Shown: positions 11,812 through 55,962 of the stretch, piece after piece | Numbering within the stretch: position 1 is the first letter of the stretch | Layout: the number at the start of each line of letters is the position of its first letter | Assembly: GCA_964594735.1 (NCBI GenBank) | Contig: CAZQMS010000001.1 | Location: 62,523 to 126,522, forward strand | From: an uncultured Candidatus Saccharibacteria bacterium | Lineage (GTDB): Bacteria; Patescibacteriota; Minisyncoccia; Phycocordibacterales; UBA2100 | DNA: 64,000 bases | Reading direction: 5' to 3' | Position numbers and translations under genes: made by a program | The notes under the pieces: model-generated | Seen by the model: the letters and a program-made list of their open reading frames with translations, nothing else | Told to the model about the DNA's origin: nothing | The model's database searches: none

Positions 11812-11850
11812 CCAAAAAGAAATCAGGCCGGCACCTCGCGGTGCCGGCCT
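11812..11850 (-). terminator. Strong rho-independent terminator on the minus strand, 15 nt upstream of the uvrB ATG
   Basis: Minus strand reads aggccggcacc-gcga-ggtgccggcct followed by GATTTCTTTTTGG; an 11-bp GC stem with a U-tract. Confidence 0.7.
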
Positions 11851-12296
11851 GTCTGTGCGCCATTTTGGCGCTTATCGCGCTCCTTGTCTTCCTCCACACG
11901 CTACGCGTCTCCGAAGAGGTACCTGAATTCGCGCGCGACGCGCTTCATCAGCTCTGCGTCCTGCGTCGAGTCTCCGGTATCCCGTACCTCTGCCCGGTAG
12001 CACACCATGCAGATAAACGAGTCGATAGAGCACGACGCCCGCCGCATCGCTTGGCCACAGCATCGTGGCACTTCCGAGCGAACGTATCCTTCGGTCCTTT
12101 GCTGCTCGTGCAACACCCTCTCCCCCATATGCAGAATCAGCGTACTCGGTGGAGCGATCAATCAAACGCGCGTTTGTACACGACCGCTGCGCGTGACTAT
12201 ACAGGTACATTTCTGTATGAATGATGAAGATCGGCATTTTGCGCTTATATGCGTCATGGGGTAATGTGGTCGCGGCATCACCACCGAGGAGGGTAC

Positions 12297-12590: not shown

Positions 12591-12612
12591 CGGGCATCCG
12601 CAGATTGCGCTA

Positions 12613-13866
<1,254 letters not shown>

Positions 13867-15306: not shown

Positions 15307-15696
15307 CTACTTTCCATCCCTCTGCCGCTCGCGAAACTGCACCTCGTGCTCGTTCATACCAAAGTGGTGCGCGAACTCGTGCCAGATTGTTTCGGCGATT
15401 ACCTGCGCCACCGGCAGCCCGTCGTCTAGCGCAGCCTGTTCTATCGGCCACTTGTAAAGCGTAATGGTGTCGGGCATCGTGATGCCAACGCCGTAGTGCT
15501 CACCGCGCTCCGTGAGTGGGATGCCTTGATAGTATCCTAGGAGCGTCTCATGCTCGCCGAGACCTTCCCTCTCTCGCACCTCCTCACTCGGTTCGTCCTC
15601 AGCAAGAATGGCAACATTCTGAATCTTCTCTCGCACCCACGCAGGCAGTTTCTCAAACCCCTCTTCAATGAGCTTCTCAAATTCGTCGTCCGGCAT
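15307..15696 (-). CDS. Small zincin-like metallopeptidase (HEFAHH; DUF1025/Zincin_1-like)
   Basis: HExxH motif (WHEFAHHFGMNE) in a ~130-aa protein. ATG at 15696 is preceded by TATAGT at 6-nt spacing (leaderless-type). The ORF track starts at a TTG at 15711. Confidence 0.7.
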   Translation of the reverse strand: MPDDEFEKLIEEGFEKLPAWVREKIQNVAILAEDEPSEEVREREGLGEHETLLGYYQGIPLTERGEHYGVGITMPDTITLYKWPIEQAALDDGLPVAQVIAETIWHEFAHHFGMNEHEVQFRERQRDGK

Positions 15697-15705
15697 GACA
15701 CTACT

Positions 15706-15745
15706 ATACAAAAAATGGATGAGCCCGGCATCATGCCGGGCTCAT
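15706..15745 (-). terminator. Intrinsic terminator (25-nt perfect palindrome tgagcccggcat-c-atgccgggctca followed by TTTTTTG on the minus strand)
   Basis: Sits between the methyltransferase stop (15751) and the metallopeptidase start. Confidence 0.5.
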
Positions 15746-16513: not shown

Positions 16514-16545
16514 CTATTACAGTGTTTTGCAAAACACTGTAATAG
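16514..16545. promoter_or_regulatory. 32-bp perfect palindrome ctattacagtgttttgcaaaacactgtaatag; candidate operator upstream of the methyltransferase promoter
   Basis: Perfect dyad, checked base by base. Core TTTTGCAAAACACT is shared with the site at 17482-17503. It lies ~11 nt upstream of a candidate TTGTGA, 17-nt spacer, TAGTGT promoter. Confidence 0.5.
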
Positions 16546-16651: not shown

Positions 16652-17383
16652 CTACCAGCGCAACGTCGGACCTGTCCACGCGACGAAGCCCGTGTAGCGC
16701 TGGTCGCCAGCCGCGTAGCTCGTGTGGTGCATGAAATATCGCGCGCCAAGGTTCCACGTGAGCTCTTTCGTGACTGTCCACGAGCCAACCACGTCGAACC
16801 GCGTGTTCCACCCAGCACTGTTGCCGTACAGCGGCGTGGCATAGACCGTCCGCACGGCAGACGAGAGCGTAAAAGTCTCGTCGACCTTCCACGCGTGACG
16901 CAGTCCGAGCTCAAACACCGTGCCAGGATCAGCGTTGAACGGCACCACCTGCTTGAGAGACGCGTAAGGCGTGATTGTGTGAGCGCCGTGCTTGATGTCG
17001 TAGCTGACCGTCACAAACGGCTGCACCACGTCATCGTAACTGCGCGCCTGCGGCGGCAGGCTGAAGTACGATATGCCCGCCGTTACATTGACCAGAGCTG
17101 CACGGAAATCACAGGCCGCCGTAAGGTCGATCTCGGAGTAGTTACCCCCGAGGTGGTCATTGAAGGCGCGCCAGCCCCAGACATTACCCCAGCACCCACT
17201 CGGCGTATGACGCCCTGTGAAGCTGGCCTGATGACCAGCACCGTCGTGCACCTTTTTGCCGAGATCGCCGAGCACATAGCTCGACCAGGTGCTGGTCTCG
17301 AGCGTATGGTTGAACTGCGCAGTCGCCGGCGACACGCCGAGCATCAGCGCGACGAGCGGGAGAATCAATTGAATGGCTGCCAC
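16652..17383 (-). CDS. Secreted beta-strand-rich Trp/Tyr-rich protein with signal peptide; possible beta-barrel (MipA/OmpV- or CopB-like?); ends ...GFVAWTGPTLRW
   Basis: GTG at 17383 is preceded by AGAGGGGG at 6-nt spacing and gives the signal peptide MAAIQLILPLVALMLGVSPATA/QF. Alternative ATG at 17428. The track starts at a TTG at 17440. Alternating hydrophobic pattern with an aromatic C-terminus. Confidence 0.55.
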   Translation of the reverse strand: MAAIQLILPLVALMLGVSPATAQFNHTLETSTWSSYVLGDLGKKVHDGAGHQASFTGRHTPSGCWGNVWGWRAFNDHLGGNYSEIDLTAACDFRAALVNVTAGISYFSLPPQARSYDDVVQPFVTVSYDIKHGAHTITPYASLKQVVPFNADPGTVFELGLRHAWKVDETFTLSSAVRTVYATPLYGNSAGWNTRFDVVGSWTVTKELTWNLGARYFMHHTSYAAGDQRYTGFVAWTGPTLRW

Positions 17384-17481
17384 GGCAACCCCCTCTTTTA
17401 TCTGCGGCTCATGACCGCACTGCGGCATACCGTGCCACAATGTCCATATATAGTCAACCTCATGTCCCTCGCGTATCTATA

Positions 17482-17503
17482 CTAGTCTTTTGCAAAACAC
17501 TAG
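17482..17503. promoter_or_regulatory. 22-bp near-perfect palindrome ctagtcttttgcaaaacactag (1 mismatch); second copy of the TTTTGCAAAACACT operator motif
   Basis: Lies between the msrA stop and the start of secreted-protein gene 16652..17383; shares a 14-nt core with 16514-16545. Confidence 0.4.
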
Positions 17504-17509
17504 AATGGA

Positions 17510-18052
17510 TTATTGCCTTACAAGCTCCGCGAAGCGTTTCCGAACTTTCTCCACTTTGGGCTCAATAACGAGCTGGCAATATGGCGCACTTGCGTTGTTC
17601 TTGAAGTAGTCTTTGTGGTAGTCCTCGGCGGGATAGAAAGTATCAAGTGGCAGAATCTGTGTAACGACGCGCGTGCCATCGGTAAGCGAATCTTGAATAC
17701 CTTTGGACACACGCTCGGCCGTCGCCTTCTCTTCGTCAGTCGAGTACAGAATTACTGAGCGATACTGCTCCCCCACATCGGCACCTTGCCTGTTCGGCGT
17801 CGTCGGGTCATGCGAGCCGAAAAAAACTGTGAGCAGGTCCTCGTACGAAATTACCGCCGGGTCGTAGGTCACGCGTATCACCTCAGCGTGCCCTGTTGCT
17901 CCTGTACTAACTTGTTCATACGTTGGTGCGGCTTGTAGTGAGCTTGTCGAACCACCGGCATATCCCGGCTCTACCTTGCTCACGCCCTTCAACATCGCAA
18001 ACACCGCCTCCGTGCACCAGAAGCATCCACCACCGAAAACTGCCGTCTGCAT
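17510..18052 (-). CDS. msrA: Peptide methionine sulfoxide reductase MsrA
   Basis: 180 aa; GGGCFWC active site at the N-terminus. Confidence 0.95.
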   Translation of the reverse strand: MQTAVFGGGCFWCTEAVFAMLKGVSKVEPGYAGGSTSSLQAAPTYEQVSTGATGHAEVIRVTYDPAVISYEDLLTVFFGSHDPTTPNRQGADVGEQYRSVILYSTDEEKATAERVSKGIQDSLTDGTRVVTQILPLDTFYPAEDYHKDYFKNNASAPYCQLVIEPKVEKVRKRFAELVRQ

Positions 18053-18058
18053 CCAGTC

Positions 18059-18095
18059 ATTATACAGAAACGGCTCAACACGTGTTGAGCCGTTT
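18059..18095 (-). promoter_or_regulatory. msrA promoter/operator: TATAAT located 6 nt upstream of the ATG (leaderless-type), plus a 28-bp perfect palindrome aaacggctcaacacgtgttgagccgttt (18068-18095) over the -35 region
   Basis: Minus strand reads ...aaacggctcaacacgtgttgagccgttt-ctg-TATAAT-gactgg-ATG. The palindrome was checked base by base. Confidence 0.45.
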
Positions 18096-18239
18096 AGCCA
18101 TTCAATGGGACGGACTTCAGCGAGATTTAACCTTGCTGGATTTTACAACTTCGAGACCACGGGCTATAGAATATGGTTGCGATGGTAAACGGCTCACACC
18201 ATCAAGACCGCGCGGGCGCGCGACTTTGATGGGTAGAGC

Positions 18240-18272
18240 GAAGCCGCGGCGAGGTAAGCCTCGCCGCGGCTA
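18240..18272 (-). terminator. GC-rich hairpin (agccgcggcgagg-taag-cctcgccgcggct) immediately downstream of the 76-aa ORF; putative terminator lacking a clear U-tract
   Basis: 13-bp perfect stem, 6 nt after the stop at 18278. Confidence 0.4.
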
Positions 18273-18277
18273 CTTCT

Positions 18278-18508
18278 TTATCGATTGCGATTGTAATAGC
18301 ACGCACAGTTGTTCAGAAACTCCTCGCGAGGTAAGGAAAGGGGTTTAATGGATTTCCCCTCCGGCAACGCGCGCAGAAGATTCACCCAGCATCGTCTGTT
18401 GCCCGAATTGTTCAACTCGAGCCTAAACGCGTTGCGTAGTCGCATAATCTCCTGTCTCAACTGCCCAGGAGTCATGGACTTCAAATCATCGTCAATCTTT
18501 CGGGTCAT
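18278..18508 (-). CDS. Hypothetical protein (76 aa) downstream of lysS
   Basis: GGAGGTG RBS 4 nt before the ATG; followed by the hairpin at 18240-18272. No family recognised. Confidence 0.5.
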   Translation of the reverse strand: MTRKIDDDLKSMTPGQLRQEIMRLRNAFRLELNNSGNRRCWVNLLRALPEGKSIKPLSLPREEFLNNCACYYNRNR

Positions 18509-18532
18509 CGGACACCTCCGTTGAGACTATAC

Positions 18533-19984
18533 TCATTCGTTCTTTGGCCGCAACAGCGGGAATATCTGCGCTTCGTGTGCGGGGCGATTCTCGAGGAACG
18601 CAAATAGTCGCTCCGAGAAACCGAAGCCGAATGCCGGAGGCATACCGTATTCCATCGCGCGGACATATTCTTCGTCGAGCCTCTGCGCTTCATCGTCACC
18701 TCCCTCGCGGAGCTTTTCCTGCTCTTCGAATCGCGCACGCTGGTCTTGCGGATCGTTGAGTTCGCCGTATCCATTGCCGACTTCCGAGCCAGCAATAAGC
18801 ACCTGAATGCGGTACACGAGCTCAGGATTCTCGGGTCGTCGCTTTGCGAGGGGTGTAAGGTACGCAGGCGTATTCACCAGGAATGCGGGGCCCGAGATTG
18901 TCTTGCGTATCGCCTTCCACAGATGATCGATAGCGCGGGGCTTGTTGAGCTCTTCTCCTACCTGTATCTGCGCGTCGCGCACGGCCTGAATCGCCTCTTC
19001 TTCGGAGCACGTAAGTGCGTCCACACCGTATCGTTCCAAGATGATTTGGCAAAAATCCACTTCCTGCCAATCTTCCGCGAGGTCGACCGTGTGCCCATGA
19101 ATTTCAAATGTATACTTTCCGTACGTCTCTTTTGCGATGTAGCGGTACAAATCCTGCACAAACCGTTTACCCTTTTCAATATCGCTGTATGCCTCGTACA
19201 TCTCGAGCATCGTGTAGTCCTGCAAATGCTCGCGCGACTGACCTTCGTTGCGGAACACGCGTCCAATTTCGAATACCTTCGGGAAACCTGCGACGAGTAG
19301 CCGCTTGAGCCAGAGCTCAAGAGAGATGCGCAGCGAGGCGTCGATATCGAGTGCATTGTGGTGTGTCTCAAAGGGCCGCGCATCCGCTCCGCCCGGCGTA
19401 AGTTCTATGACAGGAGTCTCCACTTCAAGAAATCCCTTTTCGGCGAGAAAACCGCGAACTGCATTCCAGAATTTCGCACGGCGCTTAAACATCTCGCGCA
19501 CTTCCGGATTCATCAGTATGTCGAGGTAGCGTTCGCGCAAAATCTTCTCCTCGTCCTTGAGACCAAACCAGCTATCCGGTATTGGAGCGAGCGACTTCGA
19601 AAGCATCTTCCACTTTGCTGCGAGCAGCGACTTCTCACCCCGCTTTGTGGTATAGGCCTTGCCGGTGACTGCGACGAAATCGCCCACGTCTACAGTCTCT
19701 TGAAATAGTGCGAGCAGCGCGTCATCCGTCTCACCTTTTTGAAGTACTGCCTGCGCCTTTGCCTTGCCCTCAAAGAGATCCGCGAAGACGATACCGCCCT
19801 GCCCGCGGAGCGACATGACCCGGCCAGCGATTGTTACCTCTCGGTCACCAAGTGTGTCGAATTCCTTGAGAAAATCCTCATTGCAAAATGTCCGGCCCGT
19901 TTCTGCCGGGTACGGGTCCATGCCCGCGTCCTGTAGTCTCTGGAGCTTTTTGAGCCTTTCAGCCCGGATGTCTTCACCGCTCAT
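18533..19984 (-). CDS. lysS: Lysyl-tRNA synthetase, class II
   Basis: 483 aa; N-terminal OB anticodon-binding domain plus class II catalytic core (motifs 1-3, e.g. FRNEG, GLGIDR-like). TATTAT sits 7 nt upstream of the ATG. Confidence 0.95.
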   Translation of the reverse strand: MSGEDIRAERLKKLQRLQDAGMDPYPAETGRTFCNEDFLKEFDTLGDREVTIAGRVMSLRGQGGIVFADLFEGKAKAQAVLQKGETDDALLALFQETVDVGDFVAVTGKAYTTKRGEKSLLAAKWKMLSKSLAPIPDSWFGLKDEEKILRERYLDILMNPEVREMFKRRAKFWNAVRGFLAEKGFLEVETPVIELTPGGADARPFETHHNALDIDASLRISLELWLKRLLVAGFPKVFEIGRVFRNEGQSREHLQDYTMLEMYEAYSDIEKGKRFVQDLYRYIAKETYGKYTFEIHGHTVDLAEDWQEVDFCQIILERYGVDALTCSEEEAIQAVRDAQIQVGEELNKPRAIDHLWKAIRKTISGPAFLVNTPAYLTPLAKRRPENPELVYRIQVLIAGSEVGNGYGELNDPQDQRARFEEQEKLREGGDDEAQRLDEEYVRAMEYGMPPAFGFGFSERLFAFLENRPAHEAQIFPLLRPKNE

Positions 19985-21963: not shown

Positions 21964-22392
21964 CTAGGCGCTTTTTACACAATCCTTGCAATCGCCGAAG
22001 AACTCGAGTGCGTGCGAAGCAACCGACGCAAAGTTTTTCGACTGTTTGATGACTTTCTTTTCAATTGCGTCCATGCCACATTCTTCGACATCCTCCACGC
22101 GACCGCATCCACGGCACACGAGATGGTGATGGTGTCCTCGTGTAGCCAATTCGAAAAAGCTGCGGCCTTGGTGCAATTCCACATGATTCACGAGCCCAGC
22201 CTGGACGAATGTTTCAAGCGTACGGTAGATGGTGACCTGGTCGACTTTGGGGCGCTTAAGCATCGATTCGATGTCTGCAACGCTGAGCGGATATTCCGAT
22301 TGCTCAAGCACGGCGAGAACCCGCACACGAGGCTGCGTAGCGCGGAGGCTACTGCTGCGCAATAACGCCAAAAGCGGCTGCGTCTGATCCAT
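21964..22392 (-). CDS. zur: Fur-family transcriptional regulator, probably zinc uptake regulator Zur
   Basis: 142 aa; winged-helix N-domain; HHHHLVCRGCGRVEDVEEC metal site. Assignment to Zur rather than Fur/PerR is inferred from the 1-nt spacing to the ZIP transporter. Confidence 0.75.
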   Translation of the reverse strand: MDQTQPLLALLRSSSLRATQPRVRVLAVLEQSEYPLSVADIESMLKRPKVDQVTIYRTLETFVQAGLVNHVELHQGRSFFELATRGHHHHLVCRGCGRVEDVEECGMDAIEKKVIKQSKNFASVASHALEFFGDCKDCVKSA

Positions 22393-54904: not shown

Positions 54905-55510
54905 TTACCCATTGTACCCTACAAAGGGTTCCCCTTTGTAGTCCATTGCTCGTATCTCGTCGCGACTATACAGACTCGATTCCAAAAGACGACTTTCCGG
55001 TCGCGCAAACTCAAAATAATCGACATAACTAGTGTACCTGCGATGCTTCCGATCAACAGGATTTCCGTGAATGTAGGAAAACAACCAGCGCAAGTAGTCA
55101 TCATCATCGATATGGCGCGATCGGAATGGGCGCGTAAAAAGTGGACCGCTCCGCTCGTACCGAGTATTGAAGTACATAGAGTATGCGGTCATAAGTTTTA
55201 GCATAAATCGGGAGACCCCGTCGTCTATCTTTTCGCGCAGTAAAAGATGCAAATGATTCGGCATCAACGCATACGCCGCTATCTCGACAAGCGTTTCCTT
55301 TCGCTGATGTTCGAATAATTTCACCAAGGGTTCCCCTTTGTATTTTGAGAGCAACTCCCTCATATTCACCGGGGTCGTGCTGTTGCACAGATATAGCAGC
55401 AACTGCAGTCGCCCAAAATCAGATTCACCTTTGCACACAACCATTTTGTCCACTCCGCGGGTATAGATGTGATAGTGCTCACCGACTACGAATGGCACCT
55501 TTCTCTCCAT
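54905..55510 (-). CDS. IS200/IS605-family Y1 (HUH) transposase-like protein / REP-associated tyrosine transposase (RAYT)-like
   Basis: ~201 aa; HYHIYTRG, HUH motif MPNHLHLLL, catalytic Tyr region YIHGNPV. Start at 55510 (MERKVPFVVGEHYHIY). No tnpB partner. Confidence 0.75.
   Translation of the reverse strand: MERKVPFVVGEHYHIYTRGVDKMVVCKGESDFGRLQLLLYLCNSTTPVNMRELLSKYKGEPLVKLFEHQRKETLVEIAAYALMPNHLHLLLREKIDDGVSRFMLKLMTAYSMYFNTRYERSGPLFTRPFRSRHIDDDDYLRWLFSYIHGNPVDRKHRRYTSYVDYFEFARPESRLLESSLYSRDEIRAMDYKGEPFVGYNG
54920..54940. repeat. REP-like imperfect palindrome caaagggTTCCCctttg (copy 1, overlaps the transposase 3' end)
   Basis: Read directly. Confidence 0.8.
55324..55342. repeat. REP-like palindrome ccaagggttcccctttgta (copy 2, inside the transposase ORF)
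   Basis: Read directly. Confidence 0.8.
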
Positions 55511-55524
55511 CGCATCATTGTCGT

Positions 55525-55545
55525 GCAAAGGGGAACCCTTTGCAA
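55525..55545. repeat. REP-like palindrome tgcaaaggggaaccctttgca (copy 3, inverted orientation, 15 nt upstream of the transposase ATG)
   Basis: Read directly. Confidence 0.8.
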
Positions 55546-55629
55546 TGGGAATACTGCGCAAACGCAGGCCCTGCATCCTGTCAGGGTTGCTTCGCGACGC
55601 AGGAGGTAGCGGCGCGTCATCGAGATGCA

Positions 55630-55962
55630 CTACTTGAGCTTGACCGCTGTGCCGTATGCAAGAATCTCAGCGCCGCCGTTCATTATTTGCGAAGTCGAGT
55701 ACCTGGTGCATATGATTGCATCCGCACCCATCGTGTGCGCCTCTTCTATCATGCGCGAAGTCGCTTCCTCGCGAGCTTTCTTCACGGCCTTTACGTAGCC
55801 GCGCACTTCGCCTCCGACGATTGTCATCAGACCTGCGAGGATATGGCTCCCGATGTGACGCGTCTGTATCGTGCTTCCCTCGACGAGTCCGAGGACTTGC
55901 GAAATCTCTCGCCCTGCAATCTGCTCGGTTGTTGTAATGATGATGTCGTGGTGCATATACAT
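55630..55962 (-). CDS. YbjQ/UPF0145 family protein (putative heavy-metal-binding)
   Basis: ~110 aa from the internal Met (MYMHHDIIITTTEQIAGREISQVLGLVEGSTIQTRHIG…). The track's upstream extension would overlap the next gene and is rejected. Confidence 0.75.
   Translation of the reverse strand: MYMHHDIIITTTEQIAGREISQVLGLVEGSTIQTRHIGSHILAGLMTIVGGEVRGYVKAVKKAREEATSRMIEEAHTMGADAIICTRYSTSQIMNGGAEILAYGTAVKLK

Follow-up and report, generated by a model that had tools for sequence, protein, structure and literature searches.

Leaderless promoters are described in Actinobacteria and Deinococcus, where the −10 box lies about 6–7 nt before the start codon, and intrinsic (Rho-independent) terminators are recognized by a G+C-rich stem of 5–14 bp that closes a loop of 3–8 nt, by a U-rich tract directly 3′ of this stem and by a position at the 3′ end of a transcription unit. 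The operators of SoxR/MerR regulators lie inside a 19–20-bp spacer between the −35 and −10 elements (PMC4411124). With these systems we compared a perfect 28-bp palindrome located in front of msrA, the gene for peptide methionine sulfoxide reductase A, in a stretch of 64,000 nucleotides (the window; contig CAZQMS010000001.1, positions 62,523 to 126,522) from an uncultured bacterium of the Patescibacteria, or Candidate Phyla Radiation (CPR). An earlier interpretation made from the letters of the window (the sequence-only reading) had taken the palindrome for an operator at a leaderless msrA promoter. Our analysis favors, with a probability of roughly 0.58, a terminator-type hairpin set against an extended −10 leaderless promoter, both of which would have been brought by an insertion that split an ancestral lysS–msrA pair. 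The features on which this reading leans are the following.

17510–18052, minus strand: msrA (180 aa; PF01625, E = 1.3e-59)
18064–18059, minus strand: TATAAT, the −10 hexamer of the predicted leaderless msrA promoter, read in the sequence and called by the promoter scan
18065–18074, minus strand: GCCGTTTCTG, T-rich sequence with TG immediately before the msrA −10 hexamer, recognized by comparison with lysS and other promoters of the window
18068–18095: perfect 28-bp palindrome AAACGGCTCAACAC-GTGTTGAGCCGTTT, read directly in the sequence

The N-terminus of MsrA, MQTAVFGGGCFWC, aligns from residue 1 or 2 with 80 orthologues in tblastn (the conserved MsrA motif GGGCFWC begins at residue 7), and for this reason the ATG at 18052 is considered the true start of the gene. 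Toward msrA, the minus strand reads palindrome (18095 to 18068), CTG, TATAAT, the 6 nt GACTGG and ATG, and no Shine–Dalgarno sequence precedes the start codon. This arrangement would place the transcription start at the A of the ATG and produce a leaderless mRNA, as the sequence-only reading had proposed from the same spacing. The geometry recurs across the window: TAnnnT occupies exactly −12 to −7 in 7 of 68 crude open reading frames (ORFs), when about 1 is expected, and the number of leaderless-type starts reaches 17 (msrA and 16 others) if spacings of 5–9 nt and alternative in-frame starts are allowed. The extended −10 motif TGn is present in about half of these 17 promoters, their −35 matches are poor, typically 2–3 of 6 positions, and Shine–Dalgarno motifs are rare in the window. 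Likewise, among the msrA orthologues from CPR genomes that have the start codon at the expected position (n = 31), TAnnnT was found 5–8 nt before the start in 15, at exactly 6 nt in 11 of them, against about 2 expected. These counts support well the prediction of a leaderless msrA transcript, which would reflect the default design of this genome and not a peculiarity of msrA.

As in the leaderless promoters of Actinobacteria and Deinococcus, msrA shows TATAAT, 6 nt and ATG with no Shine–Dalgarno sequence, and the pattern is enriched genome-wide, with many promoters here combining TGn with a weak −35. The difference lies in the host, a member of the Patescibacteria; for CPR bacteria, our literature search turned up no account of leaderless transcription. 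A T-rich stretch plus TG stands before −10 boxes even where there is no hairpin, since lysS has GCCGTTTTCTGC-TATTAT where msrA has GCCGTTTCTG-TATAAT, and other promoters of the window carry TTTTGG, TTTTATGG or GCTTTGA before TAnnnT. The best −35 match of msrA, a TCACA-like TCAACA with an 18-bp spacer, falls within the palindrome, which would occupy −16 to −43 with the A of the ATG as transcription start. The overlap of the palindrome with the −35 region, pointed out in the sequence-only reading, is therefore real as a matter of position, but it says little, because −35 elements are weak in the extended −10 promoters of this genome.

Elsewhere in the window, the pattern TGn-TAnnnT is seen 6–7 nt before an ATG at, for example, the starts 21136, 22392, 29918, 44412, 60858 and 62818. 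Several starts taken from the longest ORF are probably wrong; the zincin gene, for one, most likely begins at the ATG at 15696 and not at the TTG at 15711.

By chance, 64 kb should contain about 2e-4 perfect 28-bp palindromes. The one reported before msrA was confirmed at 18068–18095; its anatomy is real and non-random. As RNA, it forms a 12-bp stem with the loop ACGU, in which a 9-bp core contains 6 G–C pairs. The folding energy was −19.6 kcal/mol (z = −5.3) in a 41-nt context (18060–18100), −18.2 kcal/mol for the bare 28-mer and −14.7 kcal/mol for the 9-bp core. It had been stated that the stem is not followed by a U-tract on either strand, which turned out to be half true: the three outer pairs of the stem are A–U, and they give UUUCUGUAUAAU after the G+C-rich core on the msrA-sense strand. 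When UUU is counted as tail, the 9-bp core is followed by UUUCUGUAU (6 U in 9), and the tail score, computed with a re-implementation of the TransTermHP scheme, is −3.2, at least as good as that of the accepted terminators of the window (−1.0 to −2.5). Stem and loop fall within the ranges given above for intrinsic terminators, and the hairpin stands at the 3′ end of a unit, on the same strand as lysS and the small gene orf76 and 183 nt past the orf76 stop. An intrinsic-terminator-type RNA hairpin in this position would close or insulate the upstream lysS–orf76 unit. Its T-rich 3′ side, GCCGTTTCTG, forms the 3′ tail of the hairpin and, at the same time, the promoter-proximal element of msrA, and in the latter role it would serve as the T-rich/TG stretch typical before the −10 boxes of the window. 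From these features we infer actual termination at the hairpin and leaderless initiation at msrA.

The same kind of junction is found at other genes. A strong hairpin, defined by a z of −3 or lower versus shuffles, ends 3–21 nt upstream of the −10 box in 5 of the 17 leaderless-type promoters, namely that of msrA and those listed here.

11796, uvrB: hairpin 11824–11851, followed by ATTTCTTTTTGG-TAGAGT
15696, zincin gene: hairpin 15719–15745, followed by CCATTTTTTG-TATAGT, 6 nt and ATG
57218 (start), glycoside hydrolase ORF: hairpin–promoter junction
60858, DUF2200 gene: hairpin–promoter junction

The stems of the five hairpins are mutually unrelated in sequence; the four that do not belong to msrA show clear T-runs and evidently serve to terminate the genes before them. 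Moreover, the msrA gene of L018, an independent lineage, also has TATAAT 6 nt before its ATG, and there a hairpin with 22-bp arms, unrelated in sequence, lies directly against the box.

The closest relatives of this MsrA all come from Patescibacteria metagenome-assembled genomes of the Paceibacterota/Kaiserbacteria/Nomurabacteria type. In the two nearest genomes, L002 (88% MsrA identity) and L003 (82%), msrA lies 2–5 nt after the lysS stop. Since the two genes abut there, the 480 bp that separate them in the window are an insertion, and the hairpin and promoter, which have no counterpart where msrA directly follows lysS, arrived with it. In these relatives lysS and msrA are presumably co-transcribed; at the end of the 480-bp insert, the hairpin and the promoter would give msrA independent expression. 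Upstream of the palindrome, the insertion and its border contain the features listed below; the block as a whole comprises orf76, the hairpin behind it, the hairpin-rich spacer, the palindrome and TATAAT.

18533–19984, minus strand: lysS (lysyl-tRNA synthetase; PF00152 and PF01336)
18278–18508, minus strand: orf76, a conserved 76-aa protein with the strong Shine–Dalgarno sequence GGAGGTG and 39 homologues at 60–79% identity
18242–18271: G+C-rich hairpin with a 13-bp stem, 6 nt past the orf76 stop (terminator scan and folding)
18096–18241: hairpin-rich spacer, unique in the window and belonging to no Rfam family
18180–18199: distal arm of an inverted repeat (the "half-site"), a near-copy of the terminator 3′ arm in msrA-sense RNA
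18082–18101: proximal arm of the inverted repeat, an 18/20 match to the reverse complement of 18180–18199

Its strong Shine–Dalgarno sequence and its homologues indicate that orf76 is a real gene, for which no match was obtained in Pfam, NCBIfam, PHROG or the PDB. The homologues are normally followed by plain terminators with long T-runs that lack the msrA palindrome. In the window, the hairpin at 18242–18271 has its T-run on the plus (antisense) strand alone and is the only terminator-like call of the scan in this region. The stretch 18053–18280, which includes both the palindrome and this hairpin, folds with a z of −7.3 on the minus strand and −8.3 on the plus strand. Rfam searches (the whole window at the gathering threshold, and 17900–18600 at E up to 10) and a tRNA/tmRNA search returned nothing credible; BLAST found no other copies of the spacer 18096–18241, which has no detectable relatives elsewhere. 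A related half-site had been noticed about 100 bp upstream of the palindrome, and AAACGGCTCA does recur there, at 18187–18196, inside gatggt...accatc (18181–18203). A boundary at 18200 clips it slightly, and it belongs to a longer, imperfect inverted repeat in which 18082–18101 and 18180–18199 agree at 18 of 20 bases with two 1-nt gaps. The proximal arm of this repeat overlaps the palindrome arm farther from msrA, that is, the 5′ arm in msrA-sense RNA, and the distal arm can pair with it. The 10-mer half-site matched at this locus only when the window was searched.

The orf76 family has the invariant motifs GNRRCW, LPEG and F..NC..Y..RN and two conserved cysteines. Its members in L082–L090, L094 and L095 are located in widely differing, unrelated neighborhoods; in L095, the homologue and three other small ORFs lie between rplE (L5) and rpsN (S14) in a ribosomal protein operon. 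The family behaves like a small mobile gene. We also considered the orf76 product as a regulator acting on the palindrome and dropped the idea, given that it has no family match, a helical AlphaFold model of low confidence (predicted local distance difference test, pLDDT, 67) and homologues without the palindrome. Two hairpins that follow minus-strand genes, 12611–12636 after tgt and 18242–18271 after orf76, have a T-run on the plus strand only and an A-rich sense side; possible roles are to block antisense transcription or to form the ends of plus-strand RNAs that are not annotated.

Outside the window, the 22-nt core of the palindrome was found in only one other locus lineage among 241 million records of Joint Genome Institute (JGI) metagenome contigs. 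Its two representatives, L091 and L092, are Doudnabacteria-like and about 88% identical to each other. Both carry the palindrome on the 3′ side of ndk, where A/T flanks lengthen the pairing and 125–170 nt separate it from the next promoter-like site. A second copy in L092 (343–378) has the same 13-nt arms, but its loop is TTAC where the first has ACGT, and a T-run stands on either side; it is situated between convergent ORFs and was called a bidirectional terminator by the scan. The two copies are thus 2.6 kb apart in 7.8 kb of L092, and none of the sites in L091 and L092 overlaps a promoter. A sister lineage (L096–L103, 93% Ndk identity) is devoid of the palindrome and has a simple terminator, GGGCTCAAATTTGAGCCC followed by six T, after ndk; in L092, an older GGGCTCAAATTTGAGCCC-type terminator has lost the 3′ arm, which would be expected had the palindrome replaced it in function. 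The stems are identical in all four copies of the palindrome, which makes a covariation analysis pointless. A palindrome holds half the information of a random sequence of equal length and terminator palindromes are abundant, so the identity between the window and L091/L092 could be due to convergence and not to common descent. No Rfam match was obtained in L091 or L092, and scans of viral contigs with three patterns gave one chance match, in a coding region of a contig with 60% G+C, and otherwise nothing. Counts of GGCTCAA arms among the hairpins of the compared loci, made to look for over-representation, were dominated by redundant loci and gave no useful information.

These comparisons brought other sequences to our attention. 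Downstream of the ndk terminators, at 1260–1560 in L091 and 2400–2800 in L092, there is a near-consensus promoter (TTGACA-17 nt-TATACT) followed by a conserved region of about 300 nt that has no ORF of at least 50 aa on its strand and no Rfam match, and that may be an undescribed non-coding RNA of Doudnabacteria-like genomes. In L007 (Kaiserbacteria), the arms TTTGAGTCC, GGCTCAAA and TTTGAGCC occur at 2950–2998, in the last codons of the gene upstream of msrA; they have the GGCTCAA/TTGAGCC core of the window palindrome and end 3 nt before the msrA ATG. This likeness may be a coincidence.

The palindrome before msrA resembles Rho-independent terminators, including bidirectional ones, in its stable G+C stem, its 4-nt loop and its A/T-rich flanks that extend the pairing, as well as in its position after a transcription unit and, for the L092 copy at 343–378, between convergent ORFs with T-runs on both sides. 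Several observations nevertheless weigh against a plain terminator. The simple terminator scan made no call at the palindrome, whose U-tract UUUCUGUAU is short and interrupted; the missed call is likely explained by the scan counting A–U pairs as part of the stem. A much stronger hairpin (18242–18271) already follows orf76, and the palindrome, about 183 nt past the nearest stop, would therefore end a 3′ untranslated region of about 190 nt whose purpose is unexplained. Unlike in common terminators, the stem is part of a perfect 28-bp palindrome shared with a distant lineage: its identity to the palindrome of a different CPR class is 28 of 28, and between L091 and L092 it is perfectly conserved when the flanks are only about 82% identical. 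Such conservation indicates a constraint at the level of sequence, which also fits a protein-binding site. Finally, a plain terminator does not explain the nearby 20-nt inverted repeat.

The protein-binding alternative, in the form of a dimeric transcription factor (SoxR/MerR-like or another redox regulator) that occupies the palindrome and represses or activates msrA, seems to us unlikely. The perfect symmetry of the site, its coverage of the region that RNA polymerase must contact, the third partial copy nearby and the strict preservation of the sequence between L091 and L092 despite their differing flanks all speak in its favor. In addition, the core GCTCAAC-N4-GTTGAGC (GCTCAACACGTGTTGAGC) matches the SoxR boxes of Stenotrophomonas maltophilia (CCTCAACTGCAGTTGAGG) and Escherichia coli (CCTCAAGTTAACTTGAGG), both quoted in PMC4411124, at 12 and 10 of 18 positions, respectively. 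The palindrome thus shares with SoxR/MerR operators the inverted CTCAA(C)...(G)TTGAG half-sites and a place upstream of an oxidative-damage repair gene, but its outer positions are G instead of C, and the 18-bp core, counted from the predicted start, runs from −38 to −21. The dyad center, at −29.5, is displaced upstream by about 6 bp, or some half helical turn, from the place expected for a regulator of this family. A search of the 64 kb with up to 3 mismatches (26-mer) produced no second site, neither before other genes nor as a dispersed repeat. The palindrome is absent upstream of all 31 orthologous msrA genes examined, the closest two of which have no intergenic region, and the copies in L091 and L092 are at gene 3′ ends, once between convergent ORFs. 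The A-/T-tract flanks and the stable stem are hallmarks of terminators, and four other leaderless promoters of the window have unrelated T-run hairpins at the same position. Pfam scans, which covered about 55 of the 68 crude ORFs of the window but not carA/carB or several of the short ones, revealed no MerR/SoxR-type or other redox regulator, and no msrB, trx or ahpC; the only regulator encountered was a Fur-family gene (21964–22392) next to a ZIP transporter. The proposals that the palindrome is an operator and not a terminator, and that an oxidative-stress regulator controls msrA through it, therefore did not find support, and there is nothing positive in favor of a generic repressor at this site. 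The palindrome could also be a relic of a mobile palindromic element or a cassette boundary, of the kind of miniature inverted-repeat transposable elements (MITEs), repetitive extragenic palindromic (REP) sequences or recombination sites, without a regulatory role today; together with the 20-nt inverted repeat, it would then represent terminal repeats left by the insertion of the orf76 block. We regard this as quite doubtful, and as ranking after the operator. It agrees with the block being inserted relative to L002 and L003, with the occurrence of orf76 homologues in unrelated contexts, even inside a ribosomal protein operon, with the presence of the ndk-locus palindrome in L091/L092 and its absence from the sister lineage, and with the two same-arm copies 2.6 kb apart in L092. 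Like REP sequences, bacterial interspersed mosaic elements (BIMEs) and MITEs, it is intergenic, is present in some and absent from other closely related lineages and has a further same-arm copy in L092, but it differs from them in its very low copy number (one copy and a partial arm in 64 kb of the window, two in 7.8 kb of L092), in lacking a REP-type head and in having no linked transposase. The spacer is not repeated, no target-site duplications were seen, the search of metagenome records yielded one other locus lineage and that of viral contigs none, and the other orf76 loci have plain terminators. The arms GCTCAAC/GTTGAGC do fit, by direct reading, the integron attC core RYYYAAC/GTTRRRY and an 11-6-11 layout. 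An attC site, however, is an imperfect palindrome of at least 55 bp with extrahelical bases and is accompanied by an integrase, and a dif site is a single copy with an asymmetric center; here we have a perfect 28-bp palindrome whose symmetric center is unsuited to directional recombination and which has two copies 2.6 kb apart in L092, and no integrase domain was detected in the Pfam scans of the window. The Y1 transposase of the window is flanked by a different hairpin.

The palindrome could also be the terminator arm of an undescribed cis-regulatory switch of the Patescibacteria that gates read-through from lysS–orf76 into msrA, or a protein-bound palindrome conserved across CPR classes; we consider either improbable. 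In its explicit form, an attenuator, the distal arm 18180–18199 would be an antiterminator that pairs with the 5′ arm of the terminator and is sequestered by the upstream GCUCUACC, some signal switching lysS–orf76 read-through into msrA. A variant assumes a plus-strand small RNA that ends at the 18242–18271 hairpin, presents AAACGGCUCAC in a loop and acts on the arm of the terminator. Taken together, these two forms are the least probable of the explanations that we weighed. Folding gives them some backing: in a transcript truncated before the 3′ arm, the two repeat arms pair at long range in an 18-bp helix, their complementarity reaches 5–6 nt past the palindrome, the minimum-energy fold of the full-length RNA contains the terminator with the distal arm paired to GCUCUACC, and the spacer is unusually structured (z of −7 to −8). 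The small RNA would moreover end at the region's only terminator-like call on the plus strand, although the plus-strand promoter match is weak. This is an attenuator topology. Against the attenuator, alternative pairings arise by themselves wherever an arm is present three times, and the forced antiterminator, at −87.3 kcal/mol, is 12 kcal/mol worse than the full fold (−99.2 kcal/mol). No Rfam family matched, and metagenome and viral searches disclosed no homologous spacer and hence no covariation support. The layout of the "third arm" differs in L091/L092, where it is merely the old ndk terminator, and msrA has its own promoter downstream of the proposed switch. A terminator-type hairpin packed against the leaderless msrA promoter thus remains the reading that we prefer.

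Other elements of the window deserve mention. AT-rich palindromes at 16514–16545 (a perfect 32-bp one) and 17475–17510 share the core GTnTTTTGCAAAACAC. The former follows the canonical terminator (16630–16603) of a 262-aa ORF and lies about 40–60 nt upstream of a methyltransferase gene, while the latter starts at the msrA stop codon, upstream of the same 262-aa ORF. These are better operator candidates than the msrA palindrome; a Fur-family gene is located 4–5 kb away. The 262-aa ORF (16652–17440, minus strand) has no Pfam or NCBIfam match; with an N-terminal signal-like hydrophobic segment and the C-terminus ...TGPTLRW, its product resembles an outer-membrane beta-barrel protein, which is odd in the Patescibacteria, as they are thought to lack an outer membrane. 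A 241-aa ORF (54905–55630, minus strand) encodes the Y1 transposase (PF01797, IS200/RAYT-like). It is flanked by inverted copies of CAAAGGGGAACCCTTTG, with one imperfect internal copy (hairpins 55526–55542, 55323–55342 and 54920–54939), and no further copies of the unit were found in the window; the arrangement suggests an IS200- or REP/RAYT-like unit, here in a CPR bacterium. We examined this transposase as a mobilizer of the msrA palindrome and rejected it, as its flanking CAAAGGGGAACCCTTTG hairpins are unrelated. A role of the arm as a DNA-uptake sequence was also rejected, since it occurs at this locus only in the 64 kb.

By itself, the msrA junction carries very little weight, being a terminator–promoter junction of a kind that recurs in this genome. 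If the alternative-pairing switch were real, it would be among the first cis-regulatory RNAs proposed for CPR bacteria, but the present evidence for it is weak. The broader result is evidence, at the level of sequence, for leaderless starts at many genes of an uncultured Paceibacterota genome from extended −10 promoters, which are often packed directly against the terminator of the previous gene. The locus would provide a clean example of an insertion into a lysS–msrA operon that brings a terminator together with an outward promoter and so keeps the downstream gene expressed. These arrangements bear on how genes are called, start codons chosen and operons predicted in CPR genomes.

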